Origin: Chthonomonadales bacterium
GTDB taxonomy: Bacteria > Armatimonadota > Chthonomonadetes > Chthonomonadales > Chthonomonadaceae
Direction: 5' to 3'
Assembly (NCBI GenBank): GCA_038217285.1
Contig: JBBQPO010000065.1
Location: 1-23,160 of the forward strand
DNA: 23,160 nucleotides
Below, piece by piece: positions 519-3,823 of this stretch. A program made the translations under genes and the position numbers. The notes beneath the pieces are model-generated. The model searched no databases. It had not been told where the DNA came from and saw nothing but the letters and a program-made list of their open reading frames with translations. The stretch's first letter is position 1. Every line of letters begins with the position of its first letter.

Positions 519-547
519 TTGACAACCTGCGTGAATAGTGTGATAAT
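519..547 (+). promoter_or_regulatory. sigma70-type promoter for the pspA operon
   Basis: TTGACA (519-524), 17-nt spacer, GATAAT (542-547), with an extended -10 TG at 539-540. Confidence 0.75.
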
Positions 548-780: not shown

Positions 781-1632
781 ATGAACGTGGTCACACGCTT
801 TTTCCGCTACTTGAAAGGGTTGATTAACGGCAACCTCGATAAGTGGGAAAATCCGGAAATAATCCTCAACGAAGGCGTTCGGGAGATGAAAGAGAACCAG
901 ATCACGAACCGGGAACTCGCGGTCCAGGCCATCACGCAGAAGAATAATCTGCAGCAGGCCGTGGACAGCGAGGAGCGACTGGTCGCGGAGTATGAGCGCA
1001 AGGCGACCCTCGCCGTGTCGGGTGGCAATCGGGAGCTCGCCAAGCAGTTCTTGAAAGAGAAGGCGATCCACCAACAGACGCTGGAGAGTATGCGGGCTAG
1101 TCTTGCGTCGGCTATCGAGGCGGCGGAGAAGGTCAAAATCGCGATCAAGAACGAGGAAGACCGTATTCGCGTTCGCACCTCTGAAGCCCTGGCCCTCAAA
1201 GCCAACATGAAGCAGGCGCAGATCCAGATCTCTATCAATAAGGCGCTCGATCAGTTCCAGTTCAGTGACAACGAGAACCAGTGGTCCTCCGCCAAAGATC
1301 GGATCACGTCGATGCAGTCGGAAGCCAACGCCCGCGCCGAAATCGCCAGCACGAGCATGGACTCCAAACTGCGCGAAATGGAGTTCTCGCAAATGGACGC
1401 GCAGGCCGAGGACGAACTGGCGAAGCTGGAAGCGAAAATGGCGATGGGCGGCTCCCCAGCCAGTCGCTACACCAACACCACGACCGTGCAGCAGGTGCAG
1501 ACCCTCGGTGGCAACGGGGCGACCGCAGGCAGCAGCGCCAACGGCACAAACGGCGGCAGCACCGGCCCTGCGGTAGAGAGCGACCTGGACAAACAGTTGC
1601 GCGAACTCGAAGAGAAACTTGGTAAGCGTTAG
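781..1632 (+). CDS. pspA: PspA/IM30 (Vipp1-like) family protein, bacterial ESCRT-III, 283 aa
   Basis: ATG 781 with AAGGAG SD (preferred to the 667 track start). N-terminal amphipathic helix MNVVTRFFRYLKGLIN, ENPEIILNE motif, long coiled coil, AEDELAKLEAKM helix, Gly/Thr linker, then a terminal helix ESDLDKQLRELEEKL. Confidence 0.92.
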   Translation: MNVVTRFFRYLKGLINGNLDKWENPEIILNEGVREMKENQITNRELAVQAITQKNNLQQAVDSEERLVAEYERKATLAVSGGNRELAKQFLKEKAIHQQTLESMRASLASAIEAAEKVKIAIKNEEDRIRVRTSEALALKANMKQAQIQISINKALDQFQFSDNENQWSSAKDRITSMQSEANARAEIASTSMDSKLREMEFSQMDAQAEDELAKLEAKMAMGGSPASRYTNTTTVQQVQTLGGNGATAGSSANGTNGGSTGPAVESDLDKQLRELEEKLGKR

Positions 1633-1676
1633 TTCCCTGCCCGCAAATCGGTCAGAGGAAGAGGCGGAACCCCCGT

Positions 1677-2216
1677 ATGAGCATTCCGGAACGTTTTTAT
1701 CGTATCGCCAAACATAAGTTTTCCGAAATTCGTGACCGCGTTGATCGCTGGGACGAAGAGGCGGAGGAGGCGGAAACAGCCAAGCTCCGCAAGGCCGAGA
1801 CGCGTACCGACTCCCAGCGCGAACTTAAGGACGCCTTGAGAAGCCCGACTCCGACGAAATCCGATGCCGTCCCGCCCGCGCATGCCTCCACCCTGCGCTC
1901 CCCCGACGAGATTCGCCGTGGGGCCACTCCGACGCCTGCGAATACGCCGATGGGGCTGCCGGACCCGCTTGTTTTCCACTACAATCTGCTTGGCGTGGAG
2001 CCGGGAACCGAGTTTACGGAGGTGCAGGCCGCCTATAATAGACTGGCTGCACGGTGTGATCCCGCCCGCTTCCCGGCCCAGTCCACGGAGGCCCAGGAGG
2101 TGGAGCGCATTCGTAAGCGCCTGGAAGAATCTTATAAAGTGCTGCGGGACGCCCTCGACGCCACCGCCCGACGCTTTGACCTGTTGGAGTTCGACTCGCC
2201 TAGTGCGAAAGCCTGA
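1677..2216 (+). CDS. J-domain-like protein (C-terminal DnaJ fold with HPD replaced by DPA)
   Basis: HYNLLGVEPGTEFTEVQAAYNRLAARCDPARFP...RIRKRLEESYKVLRD aligns with the J-domain pattern YxxLGV...AYRKLAxxYHPD...INEAYEVL. GAGG SD upstream. Confidence 0.8.
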   Translation: MSIPERFYRIAKHKFSEIRDRVDRWDEEAEEAETAKLRKAETRTDSQRELKDALRSPTPTKSDAVPPAHASTLRSPDEIRRGATPTPANTPMGLPDPLVFHYNLLGVEPGTEFTEVQAAYNRLAARCDPARFPAQSTEAQEVERIRKRLEESYKVLRDALDATARRFDLLEFDSPSAKA

Positions 2217-2357: not shown

Positions 2358-2648
2358 ATGTCCCATCCTACCCGATTGACTGACTCAGAGATTCAGAAAC
2401 TCCTTCCCACGCTGACAGGCTGGGAGTTGCGTGACGGCAAGCTGCACCGCACCTTTACGTTTACCGACTTTTCGCAGGCGTGGGGCTTTATGTCCCGCGT
2501 CGCCCTGGTCGCGGAAAAGATGGACCATCATCCCGACTGGTCCAATGTCTATCGCACTGTCCATGTCGATCTCGATACCCACGACGCCGGAGGCATCACC
2601 CGCCTCGATATTGAGATGGCACAGCAGATGAACGCCCTGGCTGTGTAG
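2358..2648 (+). CDS. phhB: Pterin-4-alpha-carbinolamine dehydratase (4a-hydroxytetrahydrobiopterin dehydratase), 96 aa
   Basis: ATG 2358 after [42 protein letters not shown] motifs. Confidence 0.92.
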
Positions 2649-2659
2649 AGAAGTTTTCC

Positions 2660-3823
2660 ATGGAACTACCTGTCTACCTCGATCACTCCGCCACCACGCC
2701 TGTCGCCCCAGCCGTCCTGGAAGAGATGCTGCCCTACTTCACGGAGCGGTTCGGCAACGCCTCCGCCCTCTATAGCGTCGGCATGGCCGCTCGTGATGGA
2801 GTGGAGAACGCCCGTGAGATCCTTGCGGCGGCGCTTCATGCCTCTCCCGAAGAGATCATCTTCACCTCCGGCGGCACAGAGGCGAACAACATGGCGCTGC
2901 GCGGCGCAGCGGAGGCCGATCCCCAGCGCCGCCACCTGCTGACCACCCCCATCGAACACCATGCCGTCCTGGAACCCCTCGAACGGCTGCAACATCAGGG
3001 CTACGACCTTGAAATGCTGCCGGTGGATTCGGACGGCAGGGTCGATTTTGCGACGACCGCCCAGCAACTGCGTTCCGATACCCTGATCGTCTCCATCATG
3101 CATGCCAACAACGAGATCGGAACCGTGCAGGACATCGCCGCCTTCGGCGCGCTCTGCCGGGCGCACGGGGTTCTGTTCCATACCGATGCCGTGCAGTCGT
3201 TCGGCAAACTGCCGATTGATGTCCGCAAAATGCAGATCGATCTGCTCAGTCTCTCCGGCCACAAGCTCCACGCGCCCAAAGGCGTCGGCGCGCTCTACAT
3301 GCGGCGCGGCGTCCCGCTGGCACGCTTCATGGACGGCGGCGGGCAGGAGAGGGGGAGGCGCGGCGGAACTCTCAATGTCCCTGGAATCGTAGGTTTGGGT
3401 AAGGCGACCGAATTGGCGCAGGAACAGATGGCCTCGGAAGTGTGCCGTCTGACGGAGTTGCGGGACTGGTTTTTTGAACGTCTAACAGCCACCATTCCCG
3501 GCGTTCGCATCTGTGGGAGCCGAACCTATCGGATGCCGAACAACATCCATTTCTGTCTGGAGGGGGTGCAGGGGGAGCCGGTGCTGCTCGCTCTGGATGC
3601 CGCAGGCATCTGTGCCTCGGCAGGCTCGGCCTGTTCGGCAGGCTCGACGGAACCCTCGCATGTCCTGAAAGCGATCAGTATTCCGCGCGACCTCGCGCGC
3701 GGGGCACTGCGTCTGACGATGGGGGCGAGTACGGACAGGGAAACGCTGGAATACGTGTTGGGAACGTTAAAGCGCACCGTCAGCGACCTGCGCCACCTCG
3801 TGGGAAGCGCGGAGTCACGTTGA
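2660..3823 (+). CDS. iscS: Cysteine desulfurase, IscS/NifS group I
   Basis: YLDHSATTP, FTSGGTEANN, HTDAVQ, SGHK (PLP lysine), AGSACSAG (catalytic Cys). Confidence 0.95.
   Translation: MELPVYLDHSATTPVAPAVLEEMLPYFTERFGNASALYSVGMAARDGVENAREILAAALHASPEEIIFTSGGTEANNMALRGAAEADPQRRHLLTTPIEHHAVLEPLERLQHQGYDLEMLPVDSDGRVDFATTAQQLRSDTLIVSIMHANNEIGTVQDIAAFGALCRAHGVLFHTDAVQSFGKLPIDVRKMQIDLLSLSGHKLHAPKGVGALYMRRGVPLARFMDGGGQERGRRGGTLNVPGIVGLGKATELAQEQMASEVCRLTELRDWFFERLTATIPGVRICGSRTYRMPNNIHFCLEGVQGEPVLLALDAAGICASAGSACSAGSTEPSHVLKAISIPRDLARGALRLTMGASTDRETLEYVLGTLKRTVSDLRHLVGSAESR

Follow-up and report, generated by a model that had tools for sequence, protein, structure and literature searches.

A J-like protein without the HPD motif encoded behind the ESCRT-III gene pspA in Armatimonadota

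Introduction

PspA is a membrane-binding ESCRT-III polymer, a property that established knowledge of the family extends to the protein studied here, and the wider question that the present locus addresses is how bacterial ESCRT-III is assembled and disassembled without Vps4. Helix 0 of PspA and Vipp1 binds lipid and stacks inside the polymers, the C-terminal extension tunes polymer stability and a Vps4-like ATPase is apparently absent in bacteria (PMC7619361); the regulation of PspA without a AAA ATPase is called unknown by Ravi et al. (PMC11237479).

Chloroplast VIPP1, with HSP70B-CDJ2-CGE1 in Chlamydomonas and cpHsc70-1 in Arabidopsis, likewise pairs a PspA/Vipp1 polymer carrying a C-terminal extension with a J-fold protein (PMC13051332, PMC12798727), and the VIPP1 tail is bound by chloroplast Hsc70 (PMC12798727). 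Whereas CDJ2 works with Hsp70, the J-like protein described here has no HPD motif, opens with a PspA-like helix and has its gene next to pspA. J folds without HPD, used for protein-protein contacts, are found in Tim16/Pam16, ARC6 and CJD1 (PMC3196505), and by the definition of the same source, a J fold lacking HPD, our protein falls into this J-like class. Unlike these three, it has neither a transmembrane segment nor a neighbouring true J partner, and it combines a bacterial Psp context with a PspA-like N-terminus and a C-terminal RFxxLE tail. Substitution of the H or the D of HPD abolishes Hsp70 stimulation in every system tested (PMC8215388), and HPD-less CJD1 neither rescued dnaJ cbpA nor bound Hsp70 (PMC3196505).

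Among bacterial Psp systems, the mycobacterial ClgR-PspA-PspM operon, in which PspM supports PspA at the membrane (bioRxiv 10.64898/2026.09.09.750162), likewise has pspA followed by a membrane coiled-coil gene, as do two sister families of the one studied here. This middle gene is, however, absent from our locus and its orthologue was not found in the same family, and no J gene is named in the portion of the mycobacterial text cited (bioRxiv 10.64898/2026.09.09.750162). The proteobacterial pspF-pspABC and the Bacillus lia and pspA-ydjGHI systems likewise use a PspA/IM30 effector, but the PspA described here scores far below the TIGR02977 (59.6 vs 243) and LiaH (46.2 vs 380) cut-offs, no PspC was found in the genome and no Band-7 gene lies at the locus.

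The available main text of Ravi et al. 2024 (PMC11237479) contains none of the terms DnaJ, Hsp70 and Armatimon, and one of its supplements neither DnaJ nor taxon names; its web tables may list the neighbourhood, as may the external data sets of Popp et al. 2022 (PMC9239133), whose available text contains neither DnaJ nor Armatimon. A J-protein census (PMC10410713) does not mention PspA in the part cited and removed HPD-less sequences from its curated set. In the literature searched, no J or J-like protein linked to pspA in bacteria came to light, with the proviso that preprint supplements and subscription papers may cover the neighbourhood. Within this scope, the J-like protein is an unreported kind of Psp-system accessory, and a conserved one.

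Results

A pspA gene followed by a J-like gene without HPD

The window analysed is a stretch of 23,160 nucleotides from a Chthonomonadales bacterium of the family Chthonomonadaceae (Armatimonadota; assembly GCA_038217285.1, contig JBBQPO010000065.1). Its pspA gene occupies positions 781-1632 of the forward strand (ATG at 781, 283 aa), behind an AAGGAG ribosome-binding-like site at 765-770. The product scores 107.6 bits against PF04012 (cut-off 33.9), which places it in the PspA/IM30 family of bacterial ESCRT-III proteins, and it is the sole PF04012 gene detected in its own genome. As is characteristic of the family, it begins with a basic amphipathic helix 0 (781-846; over 54 homologues, the hydrophobic moment averages 0.83 and the net charge +3.4). 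It also has a Vipp1-like C-terminal extension, in which a last conserved helix resembling Vipp1 helix 7 follows a low-complexity linker (1576-1620; motif in 48 of the 54 homologues in alignment A3); this Vipp1-type assignment concerns sequence motif and architecture, not Vipp1 orthology.

The J-like gene follows after 44 nt (1677-2216, forward strand, 179 aa). The preliminary description of the window had noted both this arrangement and the lack of pspBC, pspF, liaRS or flotillin genes nearby. The first is borne out by coordinates, PF04012 and PF00226 matches and an AlphaFold model, and for the second, no pspB, pspC, pspF, lia or flotillin gene was recognised among the scanned neighbours of the pair, which comprise a divergent FGE-sulfatase-like ORF, a pterin-4a-carbinolamine dehydratase, a NifS-type desulfurase and a sigma-70 gene. 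The dehydratase and, behind it, the NifS-type cysteine desulfurase lie on the same strand at 2358-3823. PspC (PF04024) was not found in the genome, which is 95% complete, and the four Band-7 matches in the genome are all on other contigs. The PspB/PspC sensors and pspF of the proteobacterial PspFABC type were accordingly not found, genome-wide for PspC and at the locus for PspB and PspF.

The PF00226 match of the J-like protein is marginal (27.9 bits against a cut-off of 27.8, residues 101-159), and its fold is clearer in the AlphaFold model. Built from 94 sequences, this has a long N-terminal helix (residues 3-55), a loose linker, a J fold (1962-2159) with pLDDT above 90 over residues 101-160, and a short last helix (162-170). 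All Foldseek matches of the model are J-domains, with probability 1.00 and none at E <= 0.001. The top VIA-align match is HscB (Z 8.2, rmsd 3.8, 66 aligned) and the fourth is the Tim16 chain 2guz_B (Z 7.5, rmsd 2.1, 61 aligned). The protein thus has the fold of J-domain co-chaperones, but alignment with the canonical J-domains of its own genome puts D128-P129-A130 at the H-P-D position (2058-2066).

The loss extends across the clade. HPD occurs in none of the 94 rows of alignment A2, which holds tail-bearing homologues and leaves out the tail-less L077, L078, L096 and L097, the last two with HPD; the H position is D in 56 rows and the D position is free. Among the new representatives, 1 of 143 has HPD; a tail-bearing member that retains the motif is P0205. 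Other positions are strongly constrained, with R126, F132, R166, F167, L170 and E171 at least 90% conserved and G135, S136 and E138 conserved at 87-88%. Helix II is mildly positive (mean charge +1.2, against -1 to +3 in the canonical J-domains of the genome). Three Hsp70s are encoded in the genome, each with an arginine at what we take to be the position contacting the HPD aspartate. The third Hsp70-like gene (G000:C16:5679-8553, a 706-aa frame) lies near a gene for a short J-protein in which HPP replaces HPD.

Layout and transcription of the pair

The layout of the two genes is operon-like. The 44-nt gap (1633-1676) holds no terminator-like site, and ribosome-binding-like sites precede both genes, with GAGG at 1661-1664 before the second. 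A sigma-70-type promoter-like site lies about 230 nt upstream of pspA (519-547, forward strand; 11 of 12 matches, extended -10 TG), one of two such sites found against a shuffle mean of 0.5. RNA evidence comes from three RNA-library runs of one study, in which a relative that is about 90% identical is present; the data are contigs, in which DNA carry-over is possible. The relative's contigs begin at 523-580, near the promoter-like site. The gap is bridged by one contig in each of two runs (885-2065 and 1559-1840), and one contig of the third run extends into it, a weak hint of cotranscription, given that a contig is not proof of a single transcript. Sequencing runs contained only 6-8% of the words, and we claim neither a habitat nor an expression level.

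Between the promoter-like site and pspA lies a leader of about 230 nt (553-780), which is about 90% alike in the relative's RNA contigs and single copy in its own genome; an Rfam scan of positions 400-2700 gave no match. Directly behind the J-like gene, a dispersed, palindromic, REP-like repeat of about 110 nt (2218-2326; 21 BLAST hits in the genome, itself included; folding energy -49.7 kcal/mol) may mark the end of the transcript.

Linkage of the J-like gene to pspA across the phylum

The J-like gene was found in 57 of 60 relatives of the order. All 57 carry pspA ahead of it in the same orientation and on the same contig, at a distance of no more than 2 kb (350 nt in 33), so that the adjacency whose survey the preliminary description had proposed is conserved throughout these J-positive members of the order. 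The remaining three relatives also lack a pspA orthologue, two of these genomes being only 67% and 75% complete. Members of the window's family have the two genes as direct neighbours in 33 of 34 cases, the other having an inserted gene. In two sister families, by comparison, all 18 loci read have a further gene between them, encoding a protein of about 280 aa with an N-terminal hydrophobic hairpin and long helices. Orthologues of this membrane coiled-coil gene were found in 23 of 24 sister-family genomes (E < 1e-96), whereas the 36 genomes of the window's family yielded distant paralogues and none better than E 1e-20. The paralogue in the window's own genome (G000:C134:11795-12871, L098), with a similar-looking second ORF behind it, sits between two pieces of what is presumably a carbamoyl-phosphate synthase large-subunit gene.

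We considered whether the middle gene is Rv2743c/PspM. In the ESM Atlas it lies near the Rv2743c-family cluster (score 0.91, 203 of 256 features, the family being on 40% of members). Pfam scans of 14 members and a loose HMMER search for PF25587 in five genomes gave no match at this gene, and the model of the protein has no PDB match at E <= 0.001. The resemblance is thus one of language-model features, without HMMER support, and we did not adopt the identity but kept it as a lead.

Of 151 genomes sampled across the phylum, 58 yielded the J-like gene and 93 did not; its ESM Atlas neighbours are all commonest in Armatimonadota. Outside the order, loci from 37 of 43 J-positive genomes were examined. 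In 19 of these 37 loci pspA lies upstream, either directly or across a membrane, porin-like or class-II GATase-like gene; the other 18 have no neighbouring pspA. Nine of these 18 have a porin-like gene, a membrane gene and the J-like gene in a row, and in others the J-like gene stands alone. PspA occurs somewhere in the genome in 21 of 21 J-positive genomes checked (the 18 without a neighbouring pspA and three more) against 10 of 20 J-negative ones, a comparison among kin that are not independent. Viewed from the pspA side, the J-like gene follows at a distance of at most 2.5 kb in 42 of 80 loci and is missing there in 32, mostly from Fimbriimonadaceae, Fimbriimonas or Fimbriimonadales, the other 6 being too short to tell.

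The link between pspA and the J-like gene is therefore strong and old, yet breakable. A fixed two-gene module, as the preliminary description had supposed, does not fit these data: genes are inserted in the sister families, and 18 of 37 other-order loci and 32 of 80 pspA loci are unlinked. We accordingly rejected it in favour of a variable operon that is split in some lineages. Judged by this linkage pattern, the two-gene form of the window is probably a reduced one.

The genes that come between are varied. The porin-like gene (about 293 aa; of two members scanned, one matched Porin_4) separates pspA from the J-like gene in some loci; in others, from which pspA has gone, it comes ahead of the membrane gene and the J-like gene (L064, L066, L081, L084, L086, L087, L089; L074-L076, L088, L090-L092, L094, L095). 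One family has a class-II glutamine amidotransferase-like gene (GATase_4) in the intervening position (L069, L070, L083, L131, L142, L149, L165). In two genomes of different families, a coiled-coil gene for 220-290 aa is inserted directly before the J-like gene (L054:3632-4303; L057:4033-5079), for which no Pfam family was found.

The N-terminus of the J-like protein resembles that of PspA

The N-terminal helical region of the J-like protein (1677-1841, forward strand) resembles PspA helix 0 together with the beginning of helix 1 and, less strongly, helix 4. Like PspA helix 0, it is amphipathic and carries a positive charge (moment 0.74 vs 0.83; charge +2.4 vs +3.4), and of its near-invariant residues R6, A46, E49 and L50, arginine 6 is common to PspA helix 0. 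The resemblance is visible only when profile is compared with profile. With unselected profiles the two proteins align in register over residues 1-23 at a probability of only 20%. When the profile was limited to the 127 members with a short linker before AxxEL, it matched PspA 1-38 at 91% (E 1e-6, 35 columns), and AxxEL aligns with the AxxEM of PspA at the start of helix 1. In a sliding-window control of 91 windows, PspA 1-46 was best and PspA ~165-190 (helix 4) second at 69%, and none of the 61 control windows, taken from the membrane and porin-like proteins, exceeded 6%. With a plain HMM built on the J-like N-terminus, PspA ranked only 54th among the ORFs of its own genome (15,790 candidate N-termini). 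Going by these profiles, the N-terminus is probably of PspA origin or a mimic of PspA, although amphipathic helices can converge.

A C-terminal tail shared with squalene-hopene cyclase

The J-like protein ends in an RFxxLE[FLI] tail (2172-2192, forward strand) that is found in all 94 rows of alignment A2 and in 136 of 143 new representatives. A scan of the window's own genome for the pattern returned three ORFs, near a rough chance estimate, one of which encodes squalene-hopene cyclase (G000:C28:2835-4862, L199). In the family loci (L201-L220), the cyclase ends, after a variable linker, in RFANLEV or a one-letter variant in 19 of 20, the twentieth being cut by the contig end, and none of the 19 readable cyclases outside the family carries this tail (3 of 22 could not be read). 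The PspA of the HPD-intact family described below ends in similar RxLEx letters. When RFxxLE followed by a stop was searched for in 41 genomes, the recurrent matches were the J-like gene, the cyclase and a non-terminal RFGEMEVW, which we take to be RpoB, and the totals were near those of a reversed control. The shared tail, noticed after the fact, may be read as a lead to a docking motif.

An HPD-intact sister form

In one armatimonad family (L096, L097), pspA is followed by a membrane gene and by a J-protein with a like N-terminus, an intact HPD and no tail; the same family also encodes an HPD-less copy that stands alone at another place in the genome. Two proteins were recovered in searches with the HPD-intact L096 protein, whereas plasmids and a first metagenome scan yielded none. 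In a second metagenome scan with this protein, pspA was present in only 3 of 80 loci and most of the others held unrelated J proteins; the 80 loci provided three further full triplets (L243, L246, L247) and two membrane gene-J pairs, confirming the pspA-membrane gene-J order with an intact HPD for armatimonad-like loci only. In a tree of 69 J folds, from which the cutting rule removed six rows including L096 and L097, the J-like proteins group largely by family, as expected for long vertical retention. With its 78 columns and midpoint root, this tree is no proof that the HPD-intact form came first.

Discussion

The conserved adjacency, the operon-like layout and the PspA-like N-terminus make it plausible that the J-like protein is a dedicated partner of PspA. 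That much of the preliminary description stands, freed of the fixed two-gene module in which it was set. The explanation that we favour, with about an even chance of being right, is that a disarmed co-chaperone uses its PspA-like helices to get to PspA assemblies, or to the membrane beneath them, and there, independently of Hsp70, modulates the assemblies or connects them with another protein. The pair would then be the reduced core of an armatimonad Psp operon, and the J-like protein would descend from a PspA-dedicated J-protein in which a PspA-like N-terminus had been fused to an HPD-intact J-domain; such a form is present in the sister lineage, where the gene order is unchanged. Through most of the phylum the motif that activates Hsp70 has been lost, while strong conservation was kept in the helices of the N-terminus, in a new set of residues of the J fold and in the RFxxLE tail. 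Most probably the copy of helix 0 would target the protein to the stressed membrane where PspA is, or insert it into the PspA lattice. Working there independently of Hsp70, it may serve as a cap, a spacer or an adaptor and so adjust PspA assembly, with the dead J fold and the tail as presumptive binding surfaces.

A rather improbable alternative, if the one that survives best, is a co-regulated envelope-stress protein that shares only a promoter with pspA, binds the membrane by its own amphipathic helix and has a different partner, be it the membrane coiled-coil protein, the porin-like protein or a reader of the RFxxLE tail. The nine pspA-less loci in which the J-like gene stays with porin-like and membrane genes, the loci in which it is alone and the occurrence of the same tail on the cyclase in 19 of 20 family loci all agree with such a role. 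It accounts less well for the J-like gene staying directly behind pspA in a family without a detected membrane-gene orthologue, or for an N-terminus that resembles PspA specifically.

The preliminary description had proposed a counterpart of the chloroplast system, and a CDJ2-like protein might still bring Hsp70 to PspA polymers, through a non-canonical J-DnaK contact or through Tim16/Tim14-style pairing with a true J-protein. An intact J fold, a mildly positive helix II and HPD-intact sister forms in the same gene order would suit it. The three Hsp70s of the genome nonetheless retain the HPD-contacting arginine at its presumed position, the window has no second J gene next to the pair, and across 94 homologues H is mostly D and D can be any residue. 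The Vipp1-like tail of the window's PspA recalls the VIPP1 tail bound by chloroplast Hsc70 (PMC12798727), but H or D substitution abolishes Hsp70 stimulation (PMC8215388) and HPD-less CJD1 neither rescued dnaJ cbpA nor bound Hsp70 (PMC3196505). Loss of HPD, these precedents and the canonical Hsp70 arginine together therefore make an Hsp70 recruiter unlikely, and the Hsp70 route of the preliminary description is probably wrong.

A bolder form of the disarmed co-chaperone, which we put forward as doubtful speculation, has a PspA-mimicking pseudo-co-chaperone enter or cap the ESCRT-III lattice through its helix-0 copy and control it without Hsp70 or a Vps4-type ATPase; the RFxxLE tail would be a transferable docking motif with a role like that of eukaryotic MIM motifs, and the cyclase would have acquired the same tail. 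If so, the cyclase tail would tie hopanoid synthesis to PspA-marked damaged membrane.

It is very unlikely that the protein is instead a decoy, whose PspA-like N-terminus titrates a membrane anchor or regulator that binds the N-terminal helices of PspA and so switches the response off without binding PspA itself. Mimicry of PspA 1-38, and a J-like gene that many lineages keep next to the membrane gene, would be expected of such a protein, but the J-like gene is retained where no membrane-gene orthologue was found, PspC was not found in the genome, and the conserved J fold and tail are left unexplained. A decaying pseudo-co-chaperone carried along without function, which the loss of HPD and the 93 of 151 phylum-sample genomes without a detected gene might suggest, is largely refuted by the conservation pattern, in which many families at 21-45% identity have unbroken frames and share near-invariant residues, and is hardly credible.

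If the disarmed co-chaperone acts as we propose, it would provide an example from bacteria of a co-chaperone turned into a pseudo-co-chaperone. The two proteins make up a system that lacks transmembrane parts and lends itself to reconstitution in vitro, and the natural HPD-intact sister permits a direct comparison of Hsp70-dependent with Hsp70-independent control.

Other arrangements of PspA also occur in the phylum. One frame in the window's own genome (G000:C75:1589-3697, L200) combines a PspA-like coiled-coil N-terminal part, which matches the window's PspA at E 1.9e-9, with a Gfo/Idh/MocA oxidoreductase, and weak PspA matches in frames of 700-890 aa recur in about a dozen relatives. At one locus of a J-negative genome (L188:2964-5701), pspA is followed by a gene for a 612-aa AAA+ ATPase, like the PspA-AAA pairs of Ravi et al., and in the phylum this ATPase may offer PspA an alternative partner for remodelling.
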